Shown: positions 332 to 38,290, counted from the stretch's first letter. The stretch is DNA of 64,000 nucleotides from Candidatus Parcubacteria bacterium (GCA_026004535.1 BPJI01000001.1:324523-388522); one strand, 5' to 3'. The notes: generated from the sequence alone by a model not told the origin. A program made the numbers and translations.

Positions 332-1858
<1,527 letters not shown>

Positions 1859-5965: not shown

Positions 5966-6259
5966 ATGTTGATTATAGAAACCGATGATTTTAAAAAAGA
6001 TTTAGATAAGTTGCCTAAATCAATCAAAAGACTTTATCAGAAACAAAAACAGATTTTTGAAACAAATTGGCTTGATCCTCGATTACATGTTAAAAAACTT
6101 AAAGAGTACCACGGTGTTTATTCTTTCAGGATTACAAGATTATATCGTGTTCTTTTCTATTTTAGTGGTGTAAATGTTATCTTTTTGAAAATTAATCCAC
6201 TGATTACACGGATAATATATATTCCACTGATTACACTGATTAATAATAAATCCGCGTAA
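5966..6259 (+). CDS. RelE/ParE-family type II toxin
   Basis: …LHVKKLKEYHGVYSFRITRLYRVLFYF… matches the RelE/ParE core. C-terminal about 20 codons read into the CACGGAT repeat array. Confidence 0.6.
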   Translation: MLIIETDDFKKDLDKLPKSIKRLYQKQKQIFETNWLDPRLHVKKLKEYHGVYSFRITRLYRVLFYFSGVNVIFLKINPLITRIIYIPLITLINNKSA

Positions 6260-6330
6260 ATCCGTGGCCGAAAATTATCCGTGCAAATCCGTGGATAAAG
6301 AATATCAGTGTAAATCCGTGGCAGAAAATT
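6170..6330. repeat. periodic CACGGAT / ATCCGTG repeat array
   Basis: …tacacggataatatat…aaatccgtggccgaaaattatccgtgcaaatccgtggataaag…aaatccgtggcag; about 10-11-bp phasing with opposite orientations in the two halves. Confidence 0.55.
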
Positions 6331-6331
6331 A

Positions 6332-6703
6332 ATGAAAAAATTTCAATTTTTGCCTCATACAGCTGATATTAAAATCAGAGTTTATGGGAAAAACATCGAA
6401 GAAATTATTAATAATTCTTTATTAGCTTTGAGTTCTTATTTAAAACCAAAATTAACAAAACAAAAAATTGAAAGAAAAATTAAACTAAAGGCCGAAACAG
6501 CTGAAGATTTGATTGATTTTCTTTCTCAAGTTTTAGCCCGAATCCATATTGATAAAGCAATCTTTATAAAATTTAAGCAGGGCAAAATTAGGGGTTATAA
6601 ATTCTCAGAACTTTCTAAAGACATTAAAGCCATCACTTATCACCAAACTCAACTAAAAAAAACAAATAACCGCTATATTTTTGATTTTATTATTGATATC
6701 TAA
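6332..6703 (+). CDS. archease
   Basis: N-terminal MKKFQFLPHTADIKIRVYG matches the archease HTAD signature; about 120 aa. Confidence 0.65.
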   Translation: MKKFQFLPHTADIKIRVYGKNIEEIINNSLLALSSYLKPKLTKQKIERKIKLKAETAEDLIDFLSQVLARIHIDKAIFIKFKQGKIRGYKFSELSKDIKAITYHQTQLKKTNNRYIFDFIIDI

Positions 6704-6709
6704 AAAATC

Positions 6710-6728
6710 TAAGACGTACGACGTCTTA
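6710..6728. repeat. palindromic hairpin repeat TAAGACGTACGACGTCTTA
   Basis: Exact copy. Marks the start of the duplicated promoter plus N-terminal cassette (see 9783). Confidence 0.7.
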
Positions 6729-6752
6729 AATTGTAAATGTGGAAAAATATAA

Positions 6753-6820
6753 TTGACAAAATAAAATAGTTAGGATATAATAAAAATATAATTGACAAAA
6801 TAAAATAGTTAGGATATAAT
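6753..6820 (+). promoter_or_regulatory. two tandem identical sigma70-like promoters (TTGACA-17-TATAAT) upstream of the surface-protein gene
   Basis: TTGACAaaataaaatagttaggaTATAAT at 6753-6781 and again at 6792-6820. Confidence 0.55.
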
Positions 6821-6831
6821 CTAAATTAAAG

Positions 6832-9219
6832 ATGAACAAAAAAATACTTTTATTTACTTTAGTTTTAGGAGGTTTATTGCTCAGTTTTTTCTTTCTCTCT
6901 TTCTTTAAATCTACTTCTGCTCAAGTTTGTCTTCCTCTTAATGGTTATCTTGTTTGGCCAGGAACATGGGAATCAGGCAGAATTCCTATGGCTTCAACAC
7001 AACAATATACCTTATCAAGCTCTCCTTTTTATGTTTCTGGCAATAATGTTGGTTTAGGAACAACCAATCCTGTCTATACTTTTCAAGTTAATGGAGATAT
7101 TTCAGGAACAAGACTTTGTATTGGTAGTGATTGTCGTAATGTTTGGCCTGGTGGAGGAATTGCTGGTTCTGGTTCAGCTGGTCAAGTAGCTTTTTGGACA
7201 GGAACATCAAATATTTCAGGTGACAATGCTCTTTTTTGGGACAATATTAATAAAAGATTAGGAATTGGAACAATATCACCTCAGACATCTTTGCATGTTG
7301 CTGGTAATATCACTGCTAATACTTTTTTAGGTACAATCAATGCAGCTAATATTTCTTCAGGACAATTTGGAGCAAATACAGGAGGAGGAAATTATTACTT
7401 TATGGGTAATGTTGGTATTGGGATGACTACGCCAACAGCTAAGCTTCATGTAAATACAAATGATACAACAATAGTTCCTTTTCAAGTAGATTTTTTAACT
7501 AATCTTTTGCTTTACAGAAAGCCAATAACAATTTCGAATTCTGGTTCAAATTTAACGGATTATCAACTTCTGGTGACAATGAATACTGCCTCTTTAATTT
7601 CAGCTGGTAAAATGAGAAGTGATTGTGGCGATATAAGATTTACTGATTCTGATGGAAGTACTTTTATTGGTTATTGGATTGAATCTGGTTGCAATTCTGC
7701 TTCAACAAAAATTTGGGTAAGAGTTCCTTTAATTCCTGTTGGAACAAAAACAATTTATGTTTATTATGGAAATCCAGAAGCAGCTAGCCAAAGTAAGATC
7801 TGGTACAATGTAAAACACTTGAATATTTATGGCGGAGTTTTCAATTATAAAGCCTCATTAGGAATTAATGGTTATCATTCCAGAGAAATGCAACATAGAT
7901 TAGGAGTTTCTGCTGGAGTGGCTCGTACTTGTATCCTAAAGTCAAATGGTACTGTTGATTGTTTTGGTGATAATCAGTATGGTCAATCAGAAGACTATCT
8001 AGGAGGAGATGCTATAGGAGTTTCTGCTGGATCGTTGCATACTTGCGTTCTAAAGTCAAATGGTAATGTTGATTGTTATGGTAACAATGATTATGGTCAA
8101 TCAGAAGACTATCTAGGAGGAGATGCTATAGGAGTTTCTGCTGGACTTTATCATACTTGTATCCTAAAGTCAAATGGTAATGTTGATTGTTATGGTACTA
8201 ATTATTATGGTCAATCAAATGACTACTTAGGAGGAGATGCTATAGGAGTTTCTGCTGGACTTTATCATACTTGTATCCTAAAGTCAAATGGTAATGTTGA
8301 TTGTTATGGTGATAATCTGTTTGGTAAATCAAATGACTATCTAGGAGGAGATGCTATAGGAGTTTCTGTTGGAATGCATCATACTTGCGTTCTAAAGTCA
8401 AATGGTAATGTTGATTGTTATGGTGATAATTCTGATGGTCAATCAGAAGACTATCTAGGAGGAGATGCTATAGGAGTTTCTGCTGGATCGTCGCATACTT
8501 GCGTTCTAAAGTCAAATGGTAATGTTGATTGTTATGGTAACAATGGTTATGGTCAATCAGAAGACTATCTAGGAGGAGATGCTATAGGAGTTTCTGCTGG
8601 AGGGGCTCATACTTGTATCCTAAAGTCAAATGGTAATGTTGATTGTTATACCCAGGCAAGTGACTATCTAGGAGGAGATGCTATGAATCCATTTAGAAAA
8701 TATGTCTTCCCAACACCAACAACGAATATAGGAGCAGAAGAAAGAGTACAACAACAACAGCCAAAAACAGTCTTTTACATTCAAAATCAAACTGGCAATA
8801 TTGGTATTGGGACAACAGAACCTGAATATAAATTAGATGTTTTTGGAAACATAAGAACAACAGGATGTCTTGTTTATAATGGTGGCACGCTAGGTAGCTG
8901 TATTTCAGATGTTGTTTTAAAGACAAATATTCAAGATTTGAATTTTGAAAATGCATTAAATAAGATTTTATCTCTTCAACCAAAAATTTTTGAGTTCAAA
9001 AACGAACCTGGAAGGATTTACCATGGATTAATTGCTCAAGATGTTGAAAATGTTGCTCCTGAATTAGTAACAGTTGATGAGAAAGGATATAAACAAGTAA
9101 AATATGGAGATATTCAATGGTTATTGCTTGAAGCAATAAAAGAACAACAAGAGATAATGGAAAAGCAGCAAAAAGAAATTGAAGAATTGAAACAACAGGT
9201 TTCAGGGATTAGGGATTAG
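6832..9219 (+). CDS. large exported surface protein: conserved N-terminal domain, 9 RCC1-like repeats, C-terminal peptidase-S74 intramolecular-chaperone (tail-fibre/endosialidase-type) domain
   Basis: Signal/TM MNKKILLFTLVLGGLLLSFFFLSFF. GNVGIG(T/M)T motifs. Nine repeats of about 40 aa (GGDAIGVSAG.HTCVLKSNGNVDCYG.N.YGQS.DYLG). C-terminus …FEFKNEPGRIYHGLIAQDVENVAPELV…YKQVKYGDIQWLLLEAIKEQQE… matches the S74 chaperone domain. Confidence 0.75.
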   Translation: MNKKILLFTLVLGGLLLSFFFLSFFKSTSAQVCLPLNGYLVWPGTWESGRIPMASTQQYTLSSSPFYVSGNNVGLGTTNPVYTFQVNGDISGTRLCIGSDCRNVWPGGGIAGSGSAGQVAFWTGTSNISGDNALFWDNINKRLGIGTISPQTSLHVAGNITANTFLGTINAANISSGQFGANTGGGNYYFMGNVGIGMTTPTAKLHVNTNDTTIVPFQVDFLTNLLLYRKPITISNSGSNLTDYQLLVTMNTASLISAGKMRSDCGDIRFTDSDGSTFIGYWIESGCNSASTKIWVRVPLIPVGTKTIYVYYGNPEAASQSKIWYNVKHLNIYGGVFNYKASLGINGYHSREMQHRLGVSAGVARTCILKSNGTVDCFGDNQYGQSEDYLGGDAIGVSAGSLHTCVLKSNGNVDCYGNNDYGQSEDYLGGDAIGVSAGLYHTCILKSNGNVDCYGTNYYGQSNDYLGGDAIGVSAGLYHTCILKSNGNVDCYGDNLFGKSNDYLGGDAIGVSVGMHHTCVLKSNGNVDCYGDNSDGQSEDYLGGDAIGVSAGSSHTCVLKSNGNVDCYGNNGYGQSEDYLGGDAIGVSAGGAHTCILKSNGNVDCYTQASDYLGGDAMNPFRKYVFPTPTTNIGAEERVQQQQPKTVFYIQNQTGNIGIGTTEPEYKLDVFGNIRTTGCLVYNGGTLGSCISDVVLKTNIQDLNFENALNKILSLQPKIFEFKNEPGRIYHGLIAQDVENVAPELVTVDEKGYKQVKYGDIQWLLLEAIKEQQEIMEKQQKEIEELKQQVSGIRD
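7900..8690. repeat. about 120-bp near-identical tandem DNA repeats (x about 6.5) encoding the RCC1-like blades
   Basis: Repeated tcagaagactatctaggaggagatgctataggagtttctgctgga…cttgcgttctaaagtcaaatggtaatgttgattgttatggt units. Confidence 0.8.
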
Positions 9220-9325
9220 GTTTCAGGGATTAGGGGTTAGCTTTAAGAGCGGAGATCATTTTATTGAGAATTTTCATTATATCTTCTAAAAGTAAATCTA
9301 CTTTAGAGTAATCAAGATCTTTTGT

Positions 9326-9655
9326 TTATTTTAATCTTTTTGCTATTTCTAAATGTGTTTCTAATTCAGCTCCCGAAGCATAAGCAATTCTTAAAAATTG
9401 AATAAAATCTTTTCTTGTTCTTCGCGATCTTCCTTCAGCTATATTGGCCGGGATAGAAACAGCTGCTCTTTTAATTTGACTTACCAATCCATATGTTTCT
9501 TCTTTGGGGAAATATTTGGTTAATTCATAAATTTCCATAACTAATTCAATGGCTTTTTGCCAGACAAGCAGATCTTTATAAGATAGAATTTTTTTATTAC
9601 CAGAGCTTTTTTCATATAATAATTTTACAATATAATTAACCTGACAGCTGACCAC
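9326..9655 (-). CDS. four-helix-bundle protein ('23S rRNA intervening-sequence protein' family), copy 1
   Basis: ILSYKDLLVWQKAIELVMEIYELTKYFPKEETYGLVSQIKRAAVSIPANIAEGRSRRTRKDFIQFLRIAYASGAELETHLEIAKRL. Paralogue of 28995..29378. The N-terminus differs by a 2-nt indel, so there is a possible start or frameshift issue. Confidence 0.6.
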   Translation of the reverse strand: MVSCQVNYIVKLLYEKSSGNKKILSYKDLLVWQKAIELVMEIYELTKYFPKEETYGLVSQIKRAAVSIPANIAEGRSRRTRKDFIQFLRIAYASGAELETHLEIAKRLK

Positions 9656-9674
9656 CTGAAAGCTGACAGCTGAG

Positions 9675-9776
9675 ATGAAAAATCCTGAAGTGGCAAAACT
9701 TTTAAGGATGATGGCAATTTATTTGGAGATGAAAGGAGTTTAGTTTAAACCTCAAGCTTATGAAAAGGCTGCTTAA
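9675..9776 (+). pseudogene. truncated 5' fragment of a DNA polymerase X gene (duplicate of the 29465 start)
   Basis: MKNPEVAKLLRMMAIYLEMKGV*FKPQAYEKAA* is nearly identical to the PolX N-terminus at 29465 and is interrupted by stops. Ends at the palindromic repeat. Confidence 0.6.
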
Positions 9777-9782
9777 AAAATC

Positions 9783-9801
9783 TAAGACGTACGACGTCTT
9801 A
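9783..9801. repeat. palindromic hairpin repeat TAAGACGTACGACGTCTTA
   Basis: Exact copy at the junction between the PolX fragment and the duplicated promoter cassette. Confidence 0.7.
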
Positions 9802-9825
9802 AATTGGGGTTGAGGAAAAGTTGGG

Positions 9826-9854
9826 TTGACAAAATAAAATAGTTAGGATATAAT
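9826..9854 (+). promoter_or_regulatory. sigma70-like promoter (TTGACA-17-TATAAT), identical to those at 6753/6792
   Basis: TTGACAaaataaaatagttaggaTATAAT. Confidence 0.55.
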
Positions 9855-9865
9855 CTAAATTAAAG

Positions 9866-12454
9866 ATGAACAAAAAAATACTTTTATTTACTTTAGTTTT
9901 AGGAGGTTTATTGCTCAGTTTTTTCTTTCTCTCTTTCTTTAAATCTACTTCTGCTCAAGTTTGTCTTCCTCTTAATGGTTATCTTGTTTGGCCAGGAACA
10001 TGGGAATCAGGCAGAATTCCTATGGCTTCAACACAACAATATACCTTATCAAGCTCTCCTTTTTATGTTTCTGGCAATAATGTTGGTTTAGGAACAACCA
10101 ATCCTGTCTATACTTTTCAAGTTAATGGAGATATTTCAGGAACAAGACTTTGTATTGGTAGTGATTGTCGTAATGTTTGGCCTGGTGGAGGAATTGCTGG
10201 TTCTGGTTCAGCTGGTCAAGTAGCTTTTTGGACAGGAACATCAAATATTTCAGGTGACAATGCTCTTTTTTGGGACAATATTAATAAAAGATTAGGAATT
10301 GGAACAATATCACCTCAGACATCTTTGCATGTTGCTGGTAATATCACTGCTAATACTTTTTTAGGTACAATCAATGCAGCTAATATTTCTTCAGGACAAT
10401 TTGGAGCAAATACAGGTGGAGGGAATTATAGTTTTCCTGGCAACGTCGGCATCGGGACGACGAATCCGACTGGAAAGCTACACGTCTATAATGGAAGTAC
10501 AGAATTAATGAAAGTTGTATCTGATGTGGATGTAGTTGGCATCGTGGTAGGACCAGCTATTGGTGGAAGACATTTAATAATTAATGATATTGCTCAAGCA
10601 AGATGGGCATTTGCAACTGGATATTATGATTTATCTATTCAAAATGATTATGGTGGAAGTTGGAATACTAGAATGATAATAACAGAAGACGGCAACGTCG
10701 GCATCGGGACGACGGCGCCCGGGGCGAAGTTGGATGTTGCTGGAAATATAAGCATTAGTGGTGTAGCTGATCTGGGTTTGGATGCAGGTGATGTAGCTGG
10801 CATAGTACCTTGGTATAGAGATATTTTTGCTTTCAAGACCCCAACTAACTTTGAATATTGGGATGGCACATCGTGGGTAGCATTTACTCCTACAAATCCT
10901 CAAGGAATGACTGCATGGGGAGCTGGATCTACAATCATACCGGCAGCAAATAAAGATAAGTTCAGGTTTATAATAGATACTGGTAATAGCGTTGGGTTAA
11001 GGGCAAACTTTCTTGTAGTTAGGGCTAGTGATTGTTGCCCGGGAAGTACTTATAAGGTTGAAGTTGAAGGTAGTAACGATCTAAGCACATGGAGTGGTGT
11101 TTTAACAAGTGGAAGCGGTTTTATGGGAGGCGCTCCAGACGCCCCAACAGTAATACCATTTTCAGGGGGCAACTATAGATATGCTAGGATAACCTTTACC
11201 AAACTTTCAGGTACAAGCACAAATGCATTTAGTATTTATGAATTGCATTTATTTAACAATTGGTCACCAGCTTATGCCAATCTTCCAATAAAATGGGATA
11301 CTAATGGCAACGTCGGCATCGGGACGACGGCGCCTTCTTATAAATTACATGTTCAAGGGGGAGATATTTATGCTTCCTCTTATGTAATAGGAGGGTTAGG
11401 ATTATGTATTGGGTATGATTGTCGAACTTCATGGCCACAAGGATTAACTGGAAGTGGAAGCTCTAACGCAATTGCTGTTTGGACAGGAAGTACAAGTTTG
11501 GGATCATCTATTATTTCTCAATCAGCTGGTAGTGTTAATATAGGTGGATCACTTAGTGTTTCAGGTTCTATTTCAGGTAACAGCGTTAGTGTTTCAGGTT
11601 CTGTTTCAGGTAACAGTGTTAGTGGTAATACATTATGTATTGGGTCTGATTGTCGAACTTCATGGCCACAAGGATTAACTGGGGGTGGAAGCTCTAACGC
11701 AATTGCTGTTTGGACAGGAAGTACAAGTTTGGGATCATCTATTATTTCTCAATCAGCTGGTAGTGTTAATATAGGTGGATCACTTAGTGTTTCAGGTAGT
11801 GGTATTTATACTTCAGGATCTGTTAGTGCATCGGGCGCTGTTAGTGGCAGTATGTTATGTATTGGGTCTGATTGTCGAACTTCATGGCCATCAGGATCAG
11901 GAGGATTAACTGGAAGTGGAAGCTCTACTGCAATTGCTGTTTGGACAGGAAGTACAAGTTTGGGATCATCTATTATTTCTCAATCAGCTGGTAGTGTTAA
12001 TATAGGTGGATCACTTAGTGTTTCAGGTTCTATTTCAGGTAACAGCGTTAGTGTTTCAGGTTCTGTTTCAGGTAACAGTGTTAGTGGTAATACATTATGT
12101 ATTGGGTCTGATTGTCGAACTTCATGGCCATCAGGATCAGGAGGATTAACTGGAAGTGGAAGCTCTAGTGCAATTGCTGTTTGGACAGGAAGTACAAGTT
12201 TGGGATCATCTATTATTTCTCAATCAGCTGGTAGTGTTAATATAAATGGGTCCCTTAGTGTTTCAAATTCTATTTCAGGTGGATCTATATGTATTGGATC
12301 TTCTTGCCGAAGTTCATGGCCCGTAGGATGTAGTTGGCAGGGTGTTAGTTGTAGTAATTATATTTATTTTAGTAACGGCAACGCTAGAGTGTGTATAGAG
12401 TGTCTTAATGGTGTTGTTACTAGTTTTTATATGGAGGGGGGAAGTCTGCCGTAG
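9866..12454 (+). CDS. large exported surface protein, paralogue of 6832 with an identical first about 190 aa; Ser/Gly-rich tandem repeats and a Cys-rich C-terminus
   Basis: The first about 570 nt are identical to 6832. Three copies of the GC-rich motif GGCAACGTCGGCATCGGGACGAC. Four to five tandem copies of about 234 bp (LCIGSDCRTSWP…SLSVSGSISGNSVSVSG). Ends …FYMEGGSLP*, with a frameshifted repeat of the tail downstream. Confidence 0.7.
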   Translation: MNKKILLFTLVLGGLLLSFFFLSFFKSTSAQVCLPLNGYLVWPGTWESGRIPMASTQQYTLSSSPFYVSGNNVGLGTTNPVYTFQVNGDISGTRLCIGSDCRNVWPGGGIAGSGSAGQVAFWTGTSNISGDNALFWDNINKRLGIGTISPQTSLHVAGNITANTFLGTINAANISSGQFGANTGGGNYSFPGNVGIGTTNPTGKLHVYNGSTELMKVVSDVDVVGIVVGPAIGGRHLIINDIAQARWAFATGYYDLSIQNDYGGSWNTRMIITEDGNVGIGTTAPGAKLDVAGNISISGVADLGLDAGDVAGIVPWYRDIFAFKTPTNFEYWDGTSWVAFTPTNPQGMTAWGAGSTIIPAANKDKFRFIIDTGNSVGLRANFLVVRASDCCPGSTYKVEVEGSNDLSTWSGVLTSGSGFMGGAPDAPTVIPFSGGNYRYARITFTKLSGTSTNAFSIYELHLFNNWSPAYANLPIKWDTNGNVGIGTTAPSYKLHVQGGDIYASSYVIGGLGLCIGYDCRTSWPQGLTGSGSSNAIAVWTGSTSLGSSIISQSAGSVNIGGSLSVSGSISGNSVSVSGSVSGNSVSGNTLCIGSDCRTSWPQGLTGGGSSNAIAVWTGSTSLGSSIISQSAGSVNIGGSLSVSGSGIYTSGSVSASGAVSGSMLCIGSDCRTSWPSGSGGLTGSGSSTAIAVWTGSTSLGSSIISQSAGSVNIGGSLSVSGSISGNSVSVSGSVSGNSVSGNTLCIGSDCRTSWPSGSGGLTGSGSSSAIAVWTGSTSLGSSIISQSAGSVNINGSLSVSNSISGGSICIGSSCRSSWPVGCSWQGVSCSNYIYFSNGNARVCIECLNGVVTSFYMEGGSLP
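11395..12330. repeat. about 234-bp near-identical tandem repeats (x about 4.5) inside the 9866 gene
   Basis: ttatgtattgggtctgattgtcgaacttcatggcca… recurs at about 11400, 11637, 11866, 12100 and 12290. Confidence 0.8.
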
Positions 12455-12862
12455 GATGTAATTGGTATGGTGATCTGTGTAGTGTTGATCTTCATATTGA
12501 TACTAATCCTAATGGTCCCGGTGGTGGTTTTAATATTAGAACATGTTTAGTTTGTAACCTTGGTCAAATTACGGATATTTTTATGGAGGGGGGAAGTGAA
12601 AATTAATATTTAAATAAATTATTAAAATCATAAAAAATTTATATTTATAAAAAATCGCGATCTTTCTTTATTGTTTATAAGTTTCAAAAAATTTTAAAAC
12701 AGCAATTTAATTAATTCTTTTTTATAAGATAAATTTTAATATTTTATTGTGATTTTTAAACAAATTTTCGGATTATTGGTTTTGTATATTATAATTATTT
12801 TTGTGAAAAATTTTTATTATTATTTTTTTGTTATTTATTATAATTTTGTTTTTTAGGTTAAA

Positions 12863-13297
12863 ATGAAAGCTTTTACTTTAACCGAAGTTTTAATTGTTTT
12901 TATTATTATTGGTTTTATTATTGGTTTTTCTTCTTATATTCATTCAAAATTTTCTCGAAGCACCTTAATAATTGATGAATCAGCCAGTTTAGTTGTTAAT
13001 GTTTTAAATTTAGCCAGACAGAAAGCAATTATTGGTGAAGAAAATGCTAATTGGGGAGTTTGGTTGATTAATACTTCAACTCAAGATTATTTTTATTTAT
13101 TTAGAGGAACAACGAGTAATTTAAAAGAAAGATATGAACTGCCTCAACAAGTGAGTTTTTTTGATTTTAGTGATAGGACAATAATTTTTCAAAAATTAAC
13201 AGGTGAAACAATCTCAACCACAATTAAGATTGGCTTTTCGCCAAGTTTTTATAAATTAATTAGGGTTTCAACTTCGGGGAGTATTATTGTTGAATAA
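12863..13297 (+). CDS. type IV pilin / pseudopilin (prepilin-type N-terminal cleavage-methylation domain)
   Basis: MKAFTLTEVLIVFIIIGFIIG: class III signal peptide with Glu at the fifth position of the presumed mature N-terminus (FTLTE). Confidence 0.7.
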   Translation: MKAFTLTEVLIVFIIIGFIIGFSSYIHSKFSRSTLIIDESASLVVNVLNLARQKAIIGEENANWGVWLINTSTQDYFYLFRGTTSNLKERYELPQQVSFFDFSDRTIIFQKLTGETISTTIKIGFSPSFYKLIRVSTSGSIIVE

Positions 13298-13299
13298 AT

Positions 13300-13660
13300 C
13301 GCTGAGAGCATTATTTTACCCGGATAAATACCGGATTATTTTACCCGGATAACCAACCGGATAATGTTTACCCGGATGAATACCGGATATTAAAATATCT
13401 ACCCGGATAGTCAACCTGATAGATCACCCGGATTATTACTGTATAAATCTGGTTTAAATCCGGGTAGTTATATCAGGTTAATATCCGGGGGATTATATCT
13501 GATTTAAATCCAGGTAACTTATCCGGTCATAATCCGGGTATTTGTATCCGCTTTGGATCAGGGTAGCTTATCCGGTTTAAATCCGGGTGCTATTATCCGG
13601 TTAATATCCGGGTAATTATATTTTCTCCTGCTGTCCGCGGTGAATAATTCTTCCGTGTTA
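13300..13660. repeat. CCGGAT-type periodic palindromic element (about 21-bp phasing), about 360 bp
   Basis: Left half is …tacccggataaataccggattattttacccggataacc…. Right half carries the reverse complements (…atccgggta…atccggt…). Right terminus is CTGCTGTCCGCGGT. Confidence 0.7.
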
Positions 13661-13671
13661 TAATTTTAATT

Positions 13672-14307
13672 ATGTTTTATTTACAAAAGGTTTCCCAATT
13701 TTTGCAATATGACATTTATTTTTTTATTTCTCTTTTCTTTTTAGTTATCACCACAATTTTAAAATTTAAGACGTACGACGTCTTAAAATTGATTAGGATA
13801 TTGATGGTAGTAACGATTTTAGTCTTTATTTTATGGTCAGGCTTTTTAAGTTATAAACAATATTTGGTTTGGAAAGATCACCCTTTATCTAAATATCTTT
13901 TGCCCCCTTATCAAGAAATAAATTATTATCTAAATTATGCCTATTTTCATTTTTGGCGAGATTTTTTTTATCGTTTAATTGGTGTTTTGATTATTTTTTT
14001 ACTGATGAAATTTATAAGTTTTGTTTTTAAAAGAGATGTTTTTTATGAAGAAGAAAAAATTTTTGTTCCTTATCTTTCTTTATTTTTCTTTTTTCCTTAC
14101 AATCTAATGTTTTTCTTTTTAGGCCTTTTTATGTTAAACTTAATAATAGTAATTTCAGCTTTCAGGGGTCAGGGATCAGGTGTCAAGTTTCAGGTGTCAG
14201 AGACGAGGTTTTCTTTTAAAGATTATTGGATTTGGCTGGCTTGGTTGATATTAATTCTAGCACCACTAATTTTTAATAATTATAAGTTTTTACAATATAA
14301 ACCTTAA
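13672..14307 (+). CDS. hypothetical polytopic membrane protein (in the pilus gene cluster)
   Basis: 211 aa with several hydrophobic helices. Carries an in-frame palindromic repeat at 13767-13785. The C-terminus reads through a GGGTCAGG-type periodic repeat. Confidence 0.45.
   Translation: MFYLQKVSQFLQYDIYFFISLFFLVITTILKFKTYDVLKLIRILMVVTILVFILWSGFLSYKQYLVWKDHPLSKYLLPPYQEINYYLNYAYFHFWRDFFYRLIGVLIIFLLMKFISFVFKRDVFYEEEKIFVPYLSLFFFFPYNLMFFFLGLFMLNLIIVISAFRGQGSGVKFQVSETRFSFKDYWIWLAWLILILAPLIFNNYKFLQYKP
13767..13785. repeat. palindromic hairpin repeat TAAGACGTACGACGTCTTA inside a CDS
   Basis: Exact copy, translated in-frame (…FKTYDVLKL…). Confidence 0.7.
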
Positions 14308-24425: not shown

Positions 24426-25012
24426 CAAATTTAGTACCAATAGTAATTGAAAAAACACAATATGGCGAGAGAGCCTATGATATTTATTCAAGACTTTTGA
24501 AAGAAAGAATTATTTTCTTAGGCACTCCAATTAATGACATTGTTGCCAATAGTATTATTGCTCAGCTTTTATATTTGGAGCATGAAGATCCAGGTAAAGA
24601 TATTCATTTTTACATTCATAGTCCTGGCGGTGAACTGCCGGCTGCTTTAGCGATTTATGATACAATGCAATTTATTAAATGTGAGATTCGAACAATTGGT
24701 ATTGGTTTAGTTGCTTCGGCTGCCTCAATTTTGTTAGCCGCCGGAACAAAGGGAAAAAGATTTGCTTTACCTAATACAGAGATTTTGCTTCATCAGGTAA
24801 TGGCTGGTCCAATTGGTGGTCAGGCAGTTGAAATTGAAATTGCTGCTAAGGAAATTGTTAAGTTAAAAGAAAAAGTTAATAAAATTTTAGCTGAGCATAC
24901 TGGTCAACCTTTAGAAAGAATTGAAAAAGATACAGATAGGGATTTTTGGCTTTCAGCTGAAGAAGCAAAAAATTATGGTTTGATTGATAAAATTTTAGTT
25001 AAGCGGGCGTAG
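24422..25012 (+). CDS. clpP: ATP-dependent Clp protease proteolytic subunit
   Basis: …[26 protein letters not shown]…HSPGG…[16 protein letters not shown]…. Confidence 0.9.
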
Positions 25013-25077
25013 TTCAGCCAGGTTAGAACGCTGCCCTGTCACGGCAGAGGTCGCCGGTTCAAATCCGGTCGCCCGCG
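25003..25077 (+). tRNA. tRNA-Asp (anticodon GTC)
   Basis: GCGGGCG…CTGTCAC…GCCGGTTCAAATCCGGTCGCCCGC; overlaps the clpP stop codon by about 10 nt. Confidence 0.85.
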
Positions 25078-25758
25078 CTAAATAATTCTTTTTGATTGTT
25101 TTTTCCTCCACTCATCAATTAATTTATGATTTCCGGAAAGCAAAACTTTCGGCACTCTTAAAATCATTTCTTTTTTCTTGAATCTTGAATCATGTATCTT
25201 GATTCTTACTTCCTCCGGTCTTGTATAAACAGAATAAGAATACAATCCCTTGTCCCATCTTTTTTCTTCTAATGATAATGGATGATGCAATACTCCAGGT
25301 AAATGGCGGGAAACAGCATCAACAATGACCATTGCTGGCAATTCACCTCCAGTTAAAACATATTTGCCAATTGAAATTTTTAAATCAACAAATTTTTCAA
25401 TTCGAGCATCAATGCCTTCATAATGACCGCAAATAATAATCAATTGTTTTTCTTGGGCTAATTTCCGAGCTAAGTTTTGATTAAAAATTTCCCCAGCTGG
25501 ATGGGTTAAAATAATTTTTCTTTTCTTAGTTTTAGTTGCTTTTTTAGCTGCTTCTAAAGCTTTATAAACGGGTTCAAATTTAATCACCATTCCTGGCCCA
25601 CCACCATAGGGCTTATCATCCAGTCCATGAGGTTGGGAAAATTTTTTTAAATCAAAAAAGCTTATCTTGATAAGCTTTTTTTCTTGTGCCTTTTTTAAAA
25701 TTGATGTTTCTAAATAAGAGAAAGCTTCAGGAAAAAGAGTAATAATATCAAAAAACAT
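25078..25758 (-). CDS. trmD: tRNA (guanine37-N1)-methyltransferase
   Basis: MFFDIITLFPEAF…GGGPGMV… SPOUT core. Start taken at the internal Met; the longer ORF would overlap a tRNA-derived repeat. Confidence 0.85.
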   Translation of the reverse strand: MFFDIITLFPEAFSYLETSILKKAQEKKLIKISFFDLKKFSQPHGLDDKPYGGGPGMVIKFEPVYKALEAAKKATKTKKRKIILTHPAGEIFNQNLARKLAQEKQLIIICGHYEGIDARIEKFVDLKISIGKYVLTGGELPAMVIVDAVSRHLPGVLHHPLSLEEKRWDKGLYSYSVYTRPEEVRIKIHDSRFKKKEMILRVPKVLLSGNHKLIDEWRKKQSKRII

Positions 25759-25762
25759 CTTC

Positions 25763-25785
25763 TGCCGGGAGTGGGATTCGAATAC
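25763..25785. repeat. partial duplicate of the tRNA-Met 3' end (TGCCGGGAGTGGGATTCGAA)
   Basis: 20-nt exact match to 25888-25907, lying about 100 bp beyond the 3' end of the minus-strand tRNA-Met. Confidence 0.5.
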
Positions 25786-25886
25786 GGTAAACTCCACGCT
25801 TGTGGTAAGACATCGTTCTCTCGCTCTCGTTAATATTAAGTGCTATTTGTTCGCTGGTTTGTAGTGGGTTCTCATCCCACTCCACT

Positions 25887-25959
25887 TGCCGGGAGTGGGA
25901 TTCGAACCCACGACCTGGCGCTTATGAGACGCCCGCTCTAACCCCTGAGCTATCCCGGC
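25887..25959 (-). tRNA. tRNA-Met (anticodon CAT; elongator-type, could be tRNA-Ile2/lysidine)
   Basis: Reverse complement GCCGGGATAGCTCAGGGGTTAGAGCGGGCGTCTCATAAGCGCCAGGTCGTGGGTTCGAATCCCACTCCCGGCA. Confidence 0.85.
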
Positions 25960-26199
25960 TATTATATCTAATTATAACTTAAAAGTTTTTTAGTTAAATA
26001 TTTTCAAGTTAAAGAGCTCACAAGAACATAAAGTAAGACATACGATGTCTTACTATTAATAGATTAGTAAATTATAAATTATATTTTATAATAATAATAA
26101 TTTTATAATAATAATAAATTAAATAATAATGAATCAGGAAAAGTCGAGGTTAATAAATTTAATAAATATTTCGAACATAAGATGTCCGAATATTAAAAG

Positions 26200-27819
26200 A
26201 TGAAACTTCATAATTTTTACTTCCTACTTATTACTTCTTTTTTCGTCGCTATTCTTTTTTCTTCTTACTTTATAATTTTTCAACCATCTTATGCTTGGAT
26301 AAATCCATCCCAAAATCCACCCTTAGGAGGCGGAGTATTACAAACAGACACTTCTGGTTTAAAAATTGTCACCACAACTCAGATCACTTCAGGAAATTTT
26401 ACAGTCAACACCGGCAACGTCGGCATCGGGACGGCAAACCCAAATAGTAAACTTCAAATTGATGATCAATCTGCTTCTCATTATATTGGTCGTTATGATC
26501 CAACTTGTTGTGGATCTTCACAAATCCCAGCGAATCAATTTAGAGGTTTTACAGTATTTTGGAATACAGATTTAGCAATGTTTGGGTTAAGAGATTATGG
26601 AGGCGACAGAAAAGATGTGGTAATAAATAATGAACAAGGAGGGGATAATATTAGATTTCAAATCGCAGGTTCTGATGTAATGTTTATAAGAGGAAGTGAC
26701 GGCAACGTCGGCATCGGGACGACAGCACCAGGGGCAACTGCACGTAGCTTCAGGACTAATTGAAACTGGCACTAGAAGCGTAAAACAGTAATTAAATGTA
26801 GATTCTTGCGGAACAACAAGAGTTACAAGCGTTCTAATGGAATCTGGGCGCTGATTTAGTGGTGGATCGGGATGAATGGTTTATTGGTCGCAAGATAGAG
26901 ATGGCGGAGAAGCAAGCTTAGTTTAGAATGTCGGAACGATGCCAATGATCATATAGCTCTAATGCCTCCGGCAACGTCGGCATCGGGACGACGCATCCGT
27001 GAACAAAGTTGGATGTAGTAGGCTCGATCTAGAACTTAGCAGCTAGTCTCACTCTCTCAGCTATGGTTTGATTGGACAAACTCAAAGCTACGATTTACTT
27101 CGCTCAAGCAGATTACAATCCTGAGCAGTATTACTGGGTTGGTAGCTGAGTTAAATCAAATATGGCACAATAGGGTTATCTGGTGCAAGGAAGCTCTAGT
27201 GGACTTTTGACTTATAGACAGTGGTCTTCAGGAAAGATTGGACTCGGCAGGTGGATACATCAGTTAGCGTTCATGGTTCAAGTGGATAACTTATCTGGCA
27301 TGGATATAGCCAACTACTGGTTCTTGGAGGGAATTGGGCAAGATCTCTTCGATACAGCAAATGTAGGTAAAACATCTAGTTTCTGCAGAATAGATGGAAC
27401 TGGCGATTCCTATATTATGCGGCAACGTCGGCATCGGGACGACAGCACCAGGGTATAAATTAGATGTTGCTGGAGATGTGCATGGAACAAGTTTTCCTGT
27501 TTCTTCTGATATAAGATTTAAGACTAATCTTGAGAAATTAGATAATGTTTTAGCTAAATTAGAAAATATTAATGCTTATAAATTTGATTGGAATGAGTTG
27601 TATCAGAAATTGGGAAGAAGTGATAATCGCAGACATATTGGAGTAATTGCTCAAGAAATTGAAAAGGAATTTCCTGAATTAGTGAGTGAATGGGAGCAAG
27701 ATGGAGTAAAATATAAAGCAGTTGATTATTCAAGATTGACGGTAGTTTTGCTTGAAGCAATCAAAGAACAGCAAAAACAGATTGAGGAATTAAAAAGACA
27801 GCTTTCAGTTTTCAGGTAG
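26200..27819 (+). pseudogene. degenerate tail-fibre-like surface-protein gene: intact N-terminal fragment (26200-26763), frameshifted/stop-interrupted middle, intact S74-chaperone-domain tail (27394-27819)
   Basis: N-terminal signal plus GNVGIGT motifs. Four more copies of the GGCAACGTCGGCATCGGGACG 21-mer at 26413, 26701, 26970 and 27421. Stops between 26763 and 27394. C-terminus …IGVIAQEIEKEFPELV…YKAVDYSRLTVVLLEAIKEQQKQIEELKRQL. Confidence 0.5.
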
Positions 27820-28447: not shown

Positions 28448-28969
28448 ATGAATCAGATAAATTGGAAGAGGGTTTGGGCCACGGTCGGAGTAGCTATGGG
28501 AGTATTAATTATCGGTTTTTTGGTTTGGTATTTATTTTCCAAGCCTTCACCAGTCGTTCAAAAACAAGAACAAAAATTACCCGGAGGATTGACAGCCGAA
28601 GATTTGAAAAAAATTCCAGTCCCTGAACCAGGAGAAAAAGTTGAACAAAAAGTTGCTGTTCCCAAAGAAGCTGTAAAAGCAGGCCCAGAAACTGAAAGTA
28701 AATTAAGAATTTTTGAAATTAAAGGAGAAAATGGAACAATTTCACCAGTAATGTTTCGTGCTTATCAAAATGATATTATTAATATAAAATTAACTGCAGT
28801 TGATAAGGATTATGAGTTAAGATTGGAAGGTTATAATCTTGAGGTTAAAGCACAAAAAGGAGAAACAAAAACAATTGAATTTCAAGTTCTCAATCCAGGA
28901 GTTTTTAATTTATATTGTTCGGAATGTAGAACAGAGAAAGTGGGAAATGTGATTGTGGTTCCGAGATAG
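28448..28969 (+). CDS. membrane-anchored exported protein, possible cupredoxin-like beta-sandwich C-terminal domain
   Basis: N-terminal TM (VWATVGVAMGVLIIGFLVWYLF). C-terminal …TIEFQVLNPGVFNLYCSECRTEKVGNVIVVP resembles a cupredoxin-like strand arrangement. Fold call is weak. Confidence 0.4.
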   Translation: MNQINWKRVWATVGVAMGVLIIGFLVWYLFSKPSPVVQKQEQKLPGGLTAEDLKKIPVPEPGEKVEQKVAVPKEAVKAGPETESKLRIFEIKGENGTISPVMFRAYQNDIINIKLTAVDKDYELRLEGYNLEVKAQKGETKTIEFQVLNPGVFNLYCSECRTEKVGNVIVVPR

Positions 28970-28994: not shown

Positions 28995-29378
28995 TCAGGT
29001 TTCAGCTTTCAATTTTGAGATCATTTTATTTAGCATTTTCATTACATCTTTTAAAAGTAAATCCACCTTAGAGTAATCGATATTTTTTGTTTCTTTCAAT
29101 CTTTTGGCTATTTCTAAATGTGTTTCTAATTCAGCAGACGAGGCATAAGCAATTTTTAAAAATTGGACAAAGTCTCTTCTTGTTCTTCGAGATCGTCCTT
29201 CAGCTATATTGGCTGGAATAGAAACAGCCGCTCTCTTGATTTGGCTTACCAATCCATATATTTCTTCTTTAGGAAAATGTTTAGTTAGTTCATAAATTGC
29301 AATGACTAATTCAATAGCTTTTTGCCATACAAGTAAATCACGATAAGATAGAATTTGCCTGTCAGGAGTTTTTCTCAT
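28995..29378 (-). CDS. four-helix-bundle protein ('23S rRNA IVS protein' family), copy 2
   Basis: MRKTPDRQILSYRDLLVWQKAIELVIAIYELTKHFPKEEIYGLVSQIKRAAVSIPANIAEGRSRRTRRDF…. Confidence 0.7.
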   Translation of the reverse strand: MRKTPDRQILSYRDLLVWQKAIELVIAIYELTKHFPKEEIYGLVSQIKRAAVSIPANIAEGRSRRTRRDFVQFLKIAYASSAELETHLEIAKRLKETKNIDYSKVDLLLKDVMKMLNKMISKLKAET

Positions 29379-29464
29379 ATAATAATTTTATCAAAAATAT
29401 TTCACTGAAAGCTGACAGCTAATTAATTATATGAAAGCTGACAGCTAATTCCCTGAAAGCTAGG

Positions 29465-31183
29465 ATGAAAAATCCTGAAATTGCAAAATTATTAAGGATG
29501 ATGGGAATTTATTTGCAGATGAAGGGAGTTCAGTTTAAGCCGCAGGCTTATGAGAAAGCTGCTTATTCGATTGAGGCTTTGGATGAGGATATTGAAGAAT
29601 TTATTAAAAAAAATGGCAAAGAAGGATTGAAAAATTTACCCGGAGTAGGGGAGTCAATTGCAGAAAAAATAATTGAATATTTAAAAACAGGAAAAATTAA
29701 AGAACTGGAAGAATTAAAAAAAGAAGTACCAGTTGATGTTGAGACCTTAACTTCAATTGAAGGAGTTGGGCCAAAGATTGTTTATAAACTTTATAAAGCT
29801 TTGGGAATAAAAACAATTGAAGATTTAGAAAAAGCTTGTCGGGAGCATAAAATAAGAAGATTGCCTGGATTTGGAGAAAAAAGTGAAGAAAAAATTTTAA
29901 AAGGAATTGAATTTTTCAAACAAGGTGGAGGAAGAGTAATTTTGGGTTTTATTATTCCCGTGGTTGAAGAATTAGTAAGTTATTTAAAAGAAAGTGGGTT
30001 GGCCAAAGAAGTTGTGCCTGCTGGTTCTTATCGTCGAAAAAAAGAAACAATTGGTGATATTGATATTTTGGCTGTTTCTGATAAACCTGAAAAATTAATG
30101 GATTATTTTGTCAAGTTTCCTGAAGTAAGTAATATTTATGCTCAAGGACCAACTAAAACTATGGTTAGACTAAAAATTGGGCTTGATGCTGATTTAAGAG
30201 TTGTACCCGAAGAAAGTTTTGGTGCTGCGCTGGCTTATTTTACTGGCTCAAAGGATCATAATATTAAAATGAGGGAATTGGCAATTAAGAAAGGATGGAA
30301 ATTGAATGAATATGGACTTTTTGATAAACAGGAAAAAATGATAGCTGGCAGAACTGAAGAAGAAATTTATGAAAAACTTGGTTTAGATTGGATACCACCT
30401 GAGATGAGAGAAAATCGAGGTGAGATTGAATTAGCAATGGAGGGGAAATTACCAAAATTGATTGAATATGGTTCAATTAAGGGTGATTTGCAAGTTCAGA
30501 CAAATTGGACTGATGGCCAAAATTCAATTGAGGAAATGGTTGAGGAAGCAATTAAATTAGGTTTGGAATATATTTGCATTACTGATCATACTAAATCTTT
30601 GGCAATGACTGGTGGTTTGGATGAGGAAAAATTATTAAAGCAGATGGCTGAGATTGATAAATTAAATCAAAAATATAAAGGCAAGATAAAAATTCTAAAA
30701 GGAGCGGAAGTTAATATTTTAAAAGATGGTAGTTTGGATATCAAAGATGAAGTTTTGGCAAAATTAGATTTTGTTGGCGCTGCTATTCATAGTCATTTTA
30801 ATTTACCTCGAAATGTTCAAACTGAAAGAATTAAAAAAGCAATGGCTAACCCTAATGTTGATTGTATTTTTCATCCAACTGGCAGAGTGATTAACAAAAG
30901 ACCTGCTTATGAAGTTGATATTGATGAAATTATTGATTATGCTAAAAAGACTAAGACTATTTTAGAAATTGATGCTTATCCTGATAGACTTGATTTGAAA
31001 GATGAACATATAAGAAAGTGTGTTGAAAAAGGAGTAAAGATGGTAATTGATAGTGATGCTCATTCAGTTTTACATTTAGGTTTTTTAGATTTAGGAGTGA
31101 GCCAAGCACGTCGTGGATGGGCAACGCCGTCCGATATTATTAATACTTTAGCATATGATAAATTCAATTCATTAATTCATTAG
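29465..31183 (+). CDS. DNA polymerase X family protein (Pol-beta-like core plus C-terminal PHP phosphoesterase domain)
   Basis: HhH motifs (GVGESIAEKI, GVGPKIVYKL), palm …GSYRRKKETIGDIDIL…, PHP …ITDHTKSLAMTGG…HSHF…DSDAHS…. Confidence 0.85.
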   Translation: MKNPEIAKLLRMMGIYLQMKGVQFKPQAYEKAAYSIEALDEDIEEFIKKNGKEGLKNLPGVGESIAEKIIEYLKTGKIKELEELKKEVPVDVETLTSIEGVGPKIVYKLYKALGIKTIEDLEKACREHKIRRLPGFGEKSEEKILKGIEFFKQGGGRVILGFIIPVVEELVSYLKESGLAKEVVPAGSYRRKKETIGDIDILAVSDKPEKLMDYFVKFPEVSNIYAQGPTKTMVRLKIGLDADLRVVPEESFGAALAYFTGSKDHNIKMRELAIKKGWKLNEYGLFDKQEKMIAGRTEEEIYEKLGLDWIPPEMRENRGEIELAMEGKLPKLIEYGSIKGDLQVQTNWTDGQNSIEEMVEEAIKLGLEYICITDHTKSLAMTGGLDEEKLLKQMAEIDKLNQKYKGKIKILKGAEVNILKDGSLDIKDEVLAKLDFVGAAIHSHFNLPRNVQTERIKKAMANPNVDCIFHPTGRVINKRPAYEVDIDEIIDYAKKTKTILEIDAYPDRLDLKDEHIRKCVEKGVKMVIDSDAHSVLHLGFLDLGVSQARRGWATPSDIINTLAYDKFNSLIH

Positions 31184-37402: not shown

Positions 37403-38290
37403 TGCTCAGCAACTCCAACAAATATTGATGGTACTGGCTGGATTCCTATTCCTTTTAATCAATTTTCAAGCATTAATCTTTCTAGACTTTTCATTGATCC
37501 AATCAATAGACCTCCATATTACTATGCATTTGTTGCTGGAGGAAGTTATGCTCTCTATGCTCAATTAGAAAATCCTCAGTCTCAAGCCTCAAAAACAGAC
37601 AATGATAATTATCCTCATCTATTTTCAGTAGGAACAAATAAAAGACTCATTGATCAAGCTCAAGGACTTGTAGGGTATTGGTCTTTTGATGAAGGAAGTG
37701 GAAATATTGCTAATGATTATTCAGGAAACAATAATAATGGAACACTCTATAATGGTCCTCAATGGGTTGATGGTAAAGTAGGTAAAGCTTTAAGTTTTGA
37801 TGGAGTGGATGATTATGTGAATGCATGGACTGGCCCCGGCTCGCAAATTACCGATAGAGTTACTGTGAGCGCGTGGGCTCGTAATGTGGGAGCTCCTTCA
37901 GCGTTTAATACGATTATTGCTAATTATGCTTCGAATGCGGGATGGGCAATACGCACCGCAGAATCGGGGATTAGTTACCTGCATTTCTTAGGACGATCCG
38001 GCGCAGGCGAAGTGCGAGTTATCATTGCTTCCGAGGCGGAAACATTTAATGGTGCATGGCACCATGTCGCATTTACGGTGTCTGGAGGCGTTGCGAGAAC
38101 ATATCTTGACGGTGGTTTTGTTGCTTCCGCGTCTGGTGTTGTGAATTTGCAACCAGCGACGACTACTTTGATTGGGAAGGGTCATATAGGAGGACTTGGC
38201 TTCTGGAACGGTCTTATCGACGAAGTTCGTATCTACAATCGCGCTTTATCAGATCAAGAAATAAAGGTTCTTTATGAAGCAACTAAATAA
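37403..38290 (+). other. in-frame, stop-free continuation of the pilin ORF after the TGA: LamG/ConA-like lectin (jelly-roll) domain
   Basis: Same frame as 37082. No start codon for about 400 nt. …NGAWHHVAFTVSGGVARTYLDGGFVASAS…GLIDEVRIYNRALSDQEI… is a LamG-type signature. Confidence 0.5.

Follow-up and report, generated by a model that had tools for sequence, protein, structure and literature searches.

Two adjacent genes of a Candidatus Parcubacteria bacterium raise the question of how the same promoter and the same protein N-terminus came to stand, in identical copies, in front of two different C-termini. The genes, KatS3mg096_340 and KatS3mg096_342 (here gene 1 and gene 2), belong to a metagenome-assembled genome (MAG; GCA_026004535.1) and are located on a 556,583-nt contig (BPJI01000001.1), of which positions 324523-388522 were analyzed; this whole stretch of 64,000 nt is referred to as the window, and all coordinates are counted from its first nucleotide. 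A first-pass annotation, made from the sequence alone, had considered the locus a recombination-generated mosaic rather than a case of ancient paralogy. The answer favored here, with moderate confidence, is that both genes are tandem paralogues encoding secreted, probably trimeric adhesins of the candidate phyla radiation (CPR), which are related to the mosaic adhesive trimer (MAT) fibres of Bdellovibrio bacteriovorus and whose N-terminal parts (“heads”) were homogenised while their C-terminal parts (“tails”) were replaced by recombination.

A position-by-position comparison showed that the segments 6792-7382 and 9826-10416, both on the plus strand, are 100% identical over one unbroken run of 591 nt (offset 3034), which contains the core promoter, the signal peptide or membrane anchor and the head up to codon 184. 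The first nucleotide difference after this exact repeat, at 7383, is synonymous, the two proteins are identical through residue 188, and the BLAST match of the two blocks reaches 660 nt at 96.5% identity. Further upstream, 6701-6733 and 9774-9806 (plus strand) are identical over 33 nt (offset 3073), which places the true left start of the repeated block at 6701 and 9774, respectively. This left end comprises the archease stop codon TAA, the hexamer AAAATC and the palindrome TAAGACGTACGACGTCTTA (6710-6728 in the first copy and 9783-9801 in the second). The near-identity of the blocks 6710-7410 and 9783-10435, each with a hairpin, a TTGACA-17-TATAAT promoter, a signal and about 190 shared residues, had been noticed in the first-pass annotation and was confirmed. 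Both 591-nt repeats lie in direct orientation. A chance origin of the repeat is excluded, as the hairpin found no match in 100 shuffles and the repeat is exact over 591 nt.

The identity of the two copies is interrupted between the palindrome block and the promoter by a 19-nt patch (6734-6752 versus 9807-9825) which matches at only 8 of 19 positions. Both versions of this patch occur among relatives. Its 11 differences are easier to explain as a remnant left between gene conversion tracts than as new substitutions, because the same copy shows no change across 591 nt. A promoter scan identified three TTGACA-17-TATAAT promoters, each matching the consensus at 12 of 12 positions and starting at 6753, 6792 and 9826. 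Copy 1 carries a 39-bp promoter unit twice, as an exact tandem on the plus strand at 6743-6820 (Tandem Repeats Finder: 2.0 copies, 100% identity), with sigma-70 promoters at 6753-6781 and 6792-6820, and copy 2 has a single promoter at 9826-9854. Since the -10 box ends 11 nt short of the ATG, the mRNAs of the head genes probably have a very short leader or none and would be nearly leaderless.

Repeats of this kind might arise during metagenome assembly, either by stitching two strain haplotypes together or by collapsing two heads into one consensus, and a strain variant of a sister locus is indeed present in the same sample (locus L003, see below). The KatS3 MAGs were obtained from Katase hot-spring sediment by PacBio HiFi sequencing (read N50 10.5 kb, >Q20) and metaFlye assembly (PMC9671151). 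An artefact at 6700-12600 is unlikely because such reads are long enough for a 591-nt repeat at 3-kb spacing, thereby spanning the 3-kb unit, and because the upstream parts of the copies differ. In addition, the junction at 9774-9776 is unique and joins unrelated DNA, and a collapsed consensus would have lost the 39-bp duplication and the 19-nt patch that separate the copies. Altogether, the probability of an artefact is considered to be very small.

Beyond the common head, the tails of the two genes are unrelated. Gene 1 (6832-9219, plus strand, 795 aa; described from its open reading frame (ORF), Pfam matches, repeats and motifs) encodes the head (aa 1-188), an AT-rich linker with the peptide GNVGIGMT (7405-7452), a DUF2341 domain (7621-7794), seven RCC1 blades (7901-8649), a second linker (8794-8841) and an S74 chaperone (8905-9072). 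A profile search of the tails returned DUF2341, seven matches to RCC1_2, and Peptidase_S74 (PF13884, aa 692-747, E=7.4e-15), in agreement with the previously proposed tail-fibre-type C-terminus. The RCC1 array consists of 6.6-7 units of 114 bp, which replaces the nine 120-bp blades claimed before. The catalytic motif SDVVLK, of the SDxxxK type, is found at aa 692 and makes this domain a candidate self-cleaving intramolecular chaperone; the C-terminus also matches many PHROG tail-fibre families in their C-terminal parts. Gene 2 (9866-12454, plus strand, 862 aa; described from its ORF, repeats, 24-mer positions and PDB matches) combines the same head with linkers encoded by a 24-mer (GGCAACGTCGGCATCGGGACGACG, starting at 10439, 10691 and 11306), a discoidin-like region at about aa 300-475 with a weak F5_F8_type_C match in Pfam, approximately four 231-bp stalk repeats (11401-12265) and a Cys-rich tip. 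The four to five 234-bp repeats with a Cys-rich tail reported earlier are present, with size and number corrected to 3.7-4 copies of a 231/240-bp unit. The 77-residue stalk repeats are homologous to module 2 of the head, as they match head residues 72-170. Capping-loop motifs are located at aa 71, 192 and 655 in gene 1 and at aa 71, 192, 276 and 481 in gene 2. In the protein collection searched, gene 1 is identical to P0029 and gene 2 to P0028, each exact protein being found once.

By sequence and architecture, both genes are members of the phage-tail-fibre-like MAT fibre superfamily. MAT fibres of Bdellovibrio bacteriovorus are trimeric, beta-helical surface structures with an invariant N-terminus and swapped C-terminal tips, whose last domain is an S74 chaperone with autoproteolytic activity (SDxxxK) in some members and a different tip domain in others, and their capping loops follow the consensus V-G-G/N-small-x-x-P-x-x-x-L (Caulton et al. 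2024, PMC10769870; PDB 8OND, 8OML, 8ONC). Gene 2 matches Bd2133 (8OND) at E=7e-8 and Bd1334 (8OML) at E=1.3e-5, and the alignments run along recurrent GNVGIGT-AP-KL-V loops. The common N-terminus starts with a 21-residue hydrophobic helix followed by a TSA|Q site, the helix spanning residues 3-24 in an AlphaFold2 model, and it is predicted from these features to be a Sec-type signal or anchor that would direct secretion. For both proteins, trimeric fibre formation is probable, and surface display and ligand binding are putative.

In protein searches, the head pulls out a family of CPR proteins in which these approximately 190 residues are joined to tails of the S74, Kelch, PA14, H-type lectin, DUF5122 (delta-60) propeller, Gly-rich, DUF2341 or RCC1 type, adding up to at least eight kinds across other CPR genomes. 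The head itself is modular, since homologues without module 1, 2 or 3 exist and their boundaries fall at capping loops. Two members of the family, P0017 and P0068, are annotated in MAGs of Candidatus Aenigmatarchaeota (DPANN), one of them on a 549-kb contig; they reflect either cross-domain sharing between episymbionts or mis-assignment.

The genomic context indicates that the chromosomal slot of these genes is old. The two genes occupy a slot with the order seryl-tRNA synthetase (SerRS), toxin-antitoxin pair, archease, head gene(s), pilin-like gene, T2SSE, T2SSF and an aminoacyl-tRNA synthetase, which is kept in L017 and in four Joint Genome Institute contigs (L038-L041) at 77-81% nucleotide identity to the window. 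Its content varies: L038 and L039 exhibit one gene with an H-lectin tip, and L040 and L041 a tandem pair with DUF5122 tips. Within each of the latter genomes, the heads of the tandem genes are 99-100% identical and the tails 77-94%. When informative sites were sorted between L040 and L041, the head contained 11 concerted and no orthologous sites, the tail 16 concerted, 13 orthologous and 17 cross sites, and the C-terminus one concerted and four orthologous sites. The sites of the head are all concerted and those of the tail and C-terminus are partly orthologous; therefore, the duplication is older than the split of L040 and L041, with the heads homogenised since then. Judged by these site patterns, gene conversion or unequal exchange is confined to the promoter and head in these two genomes. 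The heads in the window are 100% identical to each other, and the heads of the relatives are 71-83% identical to them.

These comparisons bear on the earlier contrast between a recombination mosaic and ancient paralogy. Recombination is borne out by the PolX junction discussed below, by the abrupt end of identity and by the other tails found in relatives and in a co-occurring strain. The denial of ancient paralogy went too far, as the slot is conserved between genomes with about 91-92% 16S identity, homogenised tandem pairs recur and the tail sites demonstrate an older duplication. The picture drawn by the sequences is that of an old gene family with gene conversion and tail replacement.

The second cassette of the window is preceded by the remains of two genes. 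A decayed gene of the 23S_rRNA_IVP (four-helix-bundle) family lies on the minus strand at 9252-9655 and contains an in-frame TAA; the ORF 9326-9655 within it matches PF05635 at E=5e-36, and this relic is 81% identical to an intact copy at 28995-29378. It is followed on the plus strand by a relic of a PolX N-terminus (9675-9776; 33 codons, in-frame TAG), which aligns with the intact PolX gene at 29465-31183 and with the PolX genes of L025 and L028. As a unit, the relic of both genes (9252-9775) is 81% identical to the intact pair (28995-31183) and 82-88% identical to the PolX genes of relatives. Both copies carry CTGAAAGCTGAC-type short repeats in the spacer between the IVP and PolX genes. The first-pass annotation had joined a truncated PolX fragment exactly to the hairpin. 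The fragment is real; its homology to PolX stops at ...GCTGCTTA (9775), 8 nt before the hairpin stem, and the shared block starts at the TAA of 9774-9776; the novel junction between PolX codon 33 and this TAA shows a 2-nt microhomology. Because the second cassette opens with the stop codon of archease, the junction has the signature of a duplicative event in which a unit starting right after archease was joined illegitimately to PolX codon 33. Possible routes are duplication in tandem, insertion of a fragment that had circularised, and illegitimate recombination facilitated by homology once DNA had been taken up. In L025 and L028, a head gene is located directly upstream of an intact PolX gene, and an arrangement of this type accounts for the origin of the PolX and IVP relics.

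The same junction could be the product of a single recent duplicative insertion without any ongoing conversion, in which case the heads would be identical for the simple reason that both stem from the recipient and little time has passed since. The donor DNA would have come from a relative, carrying part of a head, tail 1, the IVP gene and 33 codons of PolX, and would have entered by transformation or unequal sister-strand exchange; a homology anchor in the head on one side and an illegitimate join on the other would have duplicated the recipient's archease stop, hairpin, promoter and head. Such an event fits a joint with a mere 2 nt of microhomology and a block that starts exactly at the archease stop. 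The relic is no closer to the resident copy (81%) than to relatives (82-88%), which suggests a foreign origin, and synonymous differences that begin right at 7383 are expected where donor DNA starts. Left unexplained by this scenario are the 19-nt patch with its 11 differences inside an otherwise identical block, the presence of nonsense mutations in both relics alongside a complete lack of changes in 591 nt, and the active homogenisation of tandem-pair heads in relatives. A single insertion is consequently regarded as rather unlikely, though it has to be taken seriously, and homogenised tandem paralogues with replaced tails remain the preferred explanation.

Replacement of tails left traces at the linkers. 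The three GNVGIGTT linkers of gene 2 are encoded by the identical 24-mer (10439-10462, 10691-10714 and 11306-11329), in which eight of eight codons end in G or C in a genome with a GC content at third codon positions (GC3) of about 0.2. A foreign high-GC origin of tail 2 was considered and rejected, since GC3 between the linkers is 0.16-0.30, which is near native, and high GC is limited to the linkers of 24-48 nt. A broken third gene of the window contains four further copies with 0-2 mismatches (26413-26436, 26701-26724, 26970-26993 and 27421-27444). This gene 3 (26200-27819) has a different N-terminus, an S74 end, several broken frames and an in-frame stop just after a linker. In more than 20 relatives, nucleotide homology to gene 2 stops at 10461-10463, which corresponds to the 3' end of the 24-mer. 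Another breakpoint is seen in L003, a contig from the same Katase metagenome that binning had assigned to a Bacteroidia MAG. Its identity to window positions 24967-26436 is 97.2%, the last 104 nt being 100% identical up to base 21 of the 24-mer; beyond this point it is unrelated and continues into an intact Kelch tail, where the window has the decayed, S74-ending gene 3. On this sequence comparison, L003 and gene 3 represent a tail replacement at the level of strains, and the breakpoint lies in the linker. L003 (1-3474) also has a further head-family gene absent from the window.

The conservation of the linker at the nucleotide level was surveyed in 35 non-redundant loci that had been chosen by head-protein patterns, independently of the linker motif. 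Of 137 occurrences of GNVGIGT, 51 are encoded by exactly this 24-mer, which is present in 17 of the 35 CPR-lineage loci, and at any one linker codon 72-81% of the occurrences share the same triplet. GC3 amounts to 0.75-0.82 in the eight linker codons and to 0.17-0.38 in the flanks, with 0.56 at codon -1 and 0.25 after the linker. Other conserved motifs, including the head-internal capping loop N-K-R-L-G-I-G-T, exhibit a GC3 of 0.10-0.12 and occur in many nucleotide versions. The exact 24-mer was also found in at least 120 virus-labelled contigs, which are without the CPR head. The possibility that it is simply the universal spelling of the peptide was rejected: among viral contigs selected by a degenerate pattern coding for the peptide, and hence unbiased, exact matches were 0 of 220 and codon use follows the background. 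Coding for this amino-acid motif therefore does not require this nucleotide sequence. An internal hairpin of the 24-mer is not convincing (weak 5-bp stem, z-scores -0.7 to -2.9), and a literature search found no mention of the peptide GNVGIGTT or of the 24-mer. It is tentatively proposed that the 24-mer might be a joint devoted to in-frame recombination, kept constant in its nucleotide sequence and used as a recurrent crossover site for module exchange, which fibre genes of many CPR lineages and some virus-labelled contigs would share. Recombination as the reason for its conservation is an equally cautious suggestion; a pausing of translation where domains meet, or descent of the 24-mer from a shared mobile source, are possible alternatives. 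If the proposal is correct, homologous recombination could use the identical GC-rich island at each exchangeable boundary to exchange, remove or duplicate whole adhesin modules, both inside one genome and from one genome to another, and the present locus would be one product of this exchange.

Several observations weigh against the combined interpretation of MAT-related adhesins with homogenised heads and recombined tails. The AlphaFold2 monomer model of the head has low confidence (pLDDT 67.5), and although Foldseek ranks the MAT fibres Bd3182, Bd2133 and Bd1334 at the top, none of these matches is significant (best E=0.023). Gene 1 alone gave no PDB sequence match at E<=0.01. Gene conversion was demonstrated in relatives, and the two identical copies of this genome carry no informative sites; a single recent duplication with a crossover at the 3' end of the head would yield 100% identity as well. 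Finally, the linker between head and tail of gene 1 is the AT-rich variant and exact identity stops 22 nt before it, so that the junction of gene 1 itself shows no crossover inside the 24-mer.

A common promoter and head in front of different tails had led to the suggestion of programmed phase or antigenic variation, in which alternative tails would be switched onto a shared expression head within a population. The 591-nt direct repeat can recombine, and the co-occurring strain carries another tail on the gene 3 head, the sole locus at which a strain variant was seen. A further candidate for a switch lies directly behind gene 2, where an orphan second Cys-rich tip (12455-12606, plus strand; repeat family D14, three-frame translation) is out of frame with the gene. 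A G6 tract (12437-12442) precedes the stop codon of gene 2, and one added G would fuse the orphan tip in frame; similarly, recombination between repeats at 12321 and 12449, which are 74% identical over 50 nt, would swap it in. This sequence may be a displaced tip, a decayed duplicate or the result of a homopolymer error. A programmed switch is nevertheless hard to reconcile with two complete genes, each with a 12/12 promoter, and with the lack of promoter-less silent cassettes. As the repeats are direct, an exchange between them would irreversibly delete the tail of gene 1 and the relics. Neither an invertase, integrase, recombinase or transposase nor a reverse transcriptase was found in the scanned ORFs (about ±15 kb) or in the syntenic loci, and a bAvd-like match (E=0.0025, 18.7 bits) is below the Pfam cut-off of 40 and falls on the IVP pseudogene. 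A diversity-generating retroelement was rejected on the same grounds, namely the missing reverse transcriptase among the scanned neighbours and the sub-threshold bAvd match on the 23S_rRNA_IVP pseudogene. Programmed variation is accordingly judged very improbable. The related comparison of the first-pass annotation with the tip swapping of phage receptor-binding proteins fared better, at least as a process in evolution, given the other tails on the same heads in relatives and in the co-occurring strain.

The S74 C-terminus and its matches to many PHROG tail-fibre families might also suggest that both genes are tail fibres of a prophage or the remnant of a phage-tail-like particle. Against this stand the housekeeping and pilus genes of the neighbourhood, their conserved synteny, the Sec-type N-terminus and the outcome of a search of 2.9 million viral contigs, in which the head obtained matches of only 29-30%. 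With housekeeping and type IV pilus genes as neighbours and practically no head sequence in viral contigs, the fibre genes are concluded to be cellular rather than prophage genes; a phage origin of the locus is the least likely of the explanations considered. A prophage location was rejected for the flanks as a whole, since SerRS, toxin-antitoxin pair, archease, pilin-like gene, T2SSE/F and aminoacyl-tRNA synthetase are syntenic in relatives.

The palindrome that marks the left end of both cassettes folds into an 8-bp stem with a 3-nt loop. With the consensus AAGACRT-ACG-AYGTCTT, it occurs seven times in the window, always on the plus strand (4487, 4505, 6711, 9784, 13768, 26035 and 45391), and two of these copies are a compensatory AAGACAT...ATGTCTT variant in which G:C is replaced by A:T. 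Copies are located before both head genes, as a tandem pair just before the start of SerRS and 165 nt upstream of gene 3, and two copies are apparently within ORFs. Relatives exhibit a different palindrome, TGTGACAT-N3-ATGTCACA, at the same distance upstream of the head-gene promoters. A conserved TGTGGAAAA box comes after it, and of nine copies in all, eight are upstream of head genes and one precedes a Y1-transposase-like gene. Both palindromes have the core GACAT-N3-ATGTC in common, and Rfam holds no family that matches the palindrome of the window. Its distribution suggests an upstream element that has been conserved and might serve as terminator/insulator or operator. A role as cassette-specific crossover site was rejected in view of the seven same-strand copies and the different palindrome at the same position in relatives. 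The idea of a repetitive extragenic palindrome mobilised by an associated tyrosine transposase (REP/RAYT) was likewise dropped: a weak Y1_Tnp gene stands beside a head gene in L002, and the window has no homologue.

Further features were noted in the neighbourhood of the slot. The 16S rRNA gene of the window (333-1858) is located 4.5 kb upstream of the fibre locus and is about 91-92% identical to those of L002, L013, L038 and L040, and 86% identical over a longer stretch to that of L041; in L040, a LAGLIDADG ORF is present in the region corresponding to the 16S rRNA gene of the window. In comparison with L038-L041, window positions 12863-14307 show that a gene for a 203-211-aa membrane protein was inverted and moved between the pilin-like gene and T2SSE, and a cupredoxin-like ORF is now found at 28448-28969. 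The gap at 13310-13621 is taken up by a 25-nt repeat (ATCCGGnTnAAATCCGGGTA) that forms arrays in either orientation. Between the ParE-like and archease genes (6250-6331), a 27-nt unit (ATCCGTGTAAATCCGTGGCAGAAAATT) is repeated in tandem, and inverted copies of it occur at three intergenic sites (38288-38337, 48933-49015 and 63632-63704). The stretch 57824-58972 comprises a pilin-like ORF that has an N-methylation motif and, after it, an ORF (58490-58972) with 69-73% nucleotide identity to a module that lies, in the fibre genes of L022 and L028, between DUF2341 and the last linker; the gene looks frame-broken. Binding modules thus appear to be shared between pilin-like and fibre genes.

Taken together, these data suggest the following model. 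The shared signal peptide and a head of about 160 residues would lie closest to the cell and dock the fibre to the Parcubacteria envelope, and the tails, judging from their domain families, would act as distal binding modules: a lectin-like DUF2341, a 7-bladed RCC1 propeller and a self-cleaving S74 chaperone in tail 1, and a discoidin-like domain, a repeat stalk and a Cys knob in tail 2. Both genes would sit in an old hypervariable slot that extends from archease to the type IV pilus genes. As shown in relatives, conversion or unequal crossing-over would keep the tandem heads and core promoters identical here as well, and tails would be replaced over evolutionary time with breakpoints at the GNVGIGTT...P...KL.V capping-loop linkers, as the ends of homology and the co-occurring strain indicate. 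One illegitimate duplicative join would have put a copy of the archease-stop block next to PolX codon 33, and the PolX fragment would have travelled with tail 1 and the 23S-IVP gene, both of which would now be decaying relics. Standing on identical consensus promoters, the two genes are probably both expressed and would display two fibre specificities at once. Tail diversity would arise between lineages and strains and not by a programmed switch within the cell.

For CPR bacteria (Patescibacteria), little is known about host recognition and attachment beyond type IV pili, and the locus offers concrete candidates, namely putative MAT-like fibres with lectin, propeller and knob tips in a hypervariable slot by pilus genes. 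Their tips vary between related genomes and even between strains of one hot spring, a pattern expected of host-range determinants such as phage receptor-binding proteins and the MAT fibres of Bdellovibrio. The idea of MAT fibres would thereby be extended from predators to episymbionts, and the locus would provide a clear case of concerted evolution of an anchoring end combined with shuffling of a binding end. If the 24-mer linker is a recombination joint, it would represent a simple and general route to in-frame domain shuffling, and it could serve as a handy sequence tag for adhesin genes in metagenomes. The first-pass annotation had regarded a shared head on variable tails as undescribed for CPR episymbiont adhesins. 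This holds for the CPR, as a literature search found no paper describing such an architecture there; the architecture in general is known from the MAT fibres of Bdellovibrio (2024, PMC10769870). What seems new is the CPR host lineage, the slot beside pilus genes, the evidence for gene conversion restricted to the head and the nucleotide-invariant linker. Already known in kind is the combination of a homogenised constant end with a swapped variable end, as in phage receptor-binding proteins, MAT fibres and polymorphic toxins.

The closest known system is thus the MAT fibres, with which the proteins share direct sequence similarity on the capping-loop beta-helix repeats, a constant N-terminal part with diverse tips, members with and without S74 and several paralogues per genome. 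Bdellovibrio, too, lives attached to other cells, and a possible interplay of MAT fibres with type IV pili was suggested by the authors of that study, whose list of MAT-bearing organisms does not include the CPR (PMC10769870). In contrast to the Gram-negative predator Bdellovibrio, the host is here a monoderm-like, ultrasmall member of the Parcubacteria. The head is a CPR-specific family, the N-terminal parallel is one of architecture, and the tips are RCC1 propeller, DUF2341, Kelch, PA14, H-lectin and DUF5122 domains. Moreover, the genes are located in a conserved chromosomal slot beside pilus genes, tandem heads are apparently homogenised by gene conversion and linkers are conserved at the nucleotide level in the CPR.

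Phage tail fibres such as the K1F endosialidase and T5 pb1 resemble the present proteins in the S74 domain with its catalytic motif, in the combination of a constant proximal and a variable distal part, and in exchange at short conserved motifs. In T-even phages, for example, recombination at the conserved “His-box” motifs of gp37 results in modular exchange of distal parts. The genes described here differ in being cellular, with a signal peptide and no virion genes near. In polymorphic toxin loci (Rhs, CdiA), a constant body is followed by variable C-terminal tips, and displaced orphan tips are joined at a conserved motif. The similarity extends to the constant N-terminus, the variable C-terminus, the exchange at a conserved motif and even the out-of-frame alternative tip after gene 2; unlike in these systems, there is no toxin/immunity pair, the tips are binding or propeller domains, and each gene has several exchange points. 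Antigenic variation from silent cassettes, as in Neisseria pilE/pilS and in MgPa of Mycoplasma genitalium (PMC2169797), likewise involves conversion between repeated segments of surface genes in a small-genome, host-attached bacterium. In the Parcubacteria locus, however, it is the constant part that appears to be converted, the variable parts are whole domains, and both copies are probably expressed genes without a silent archive.

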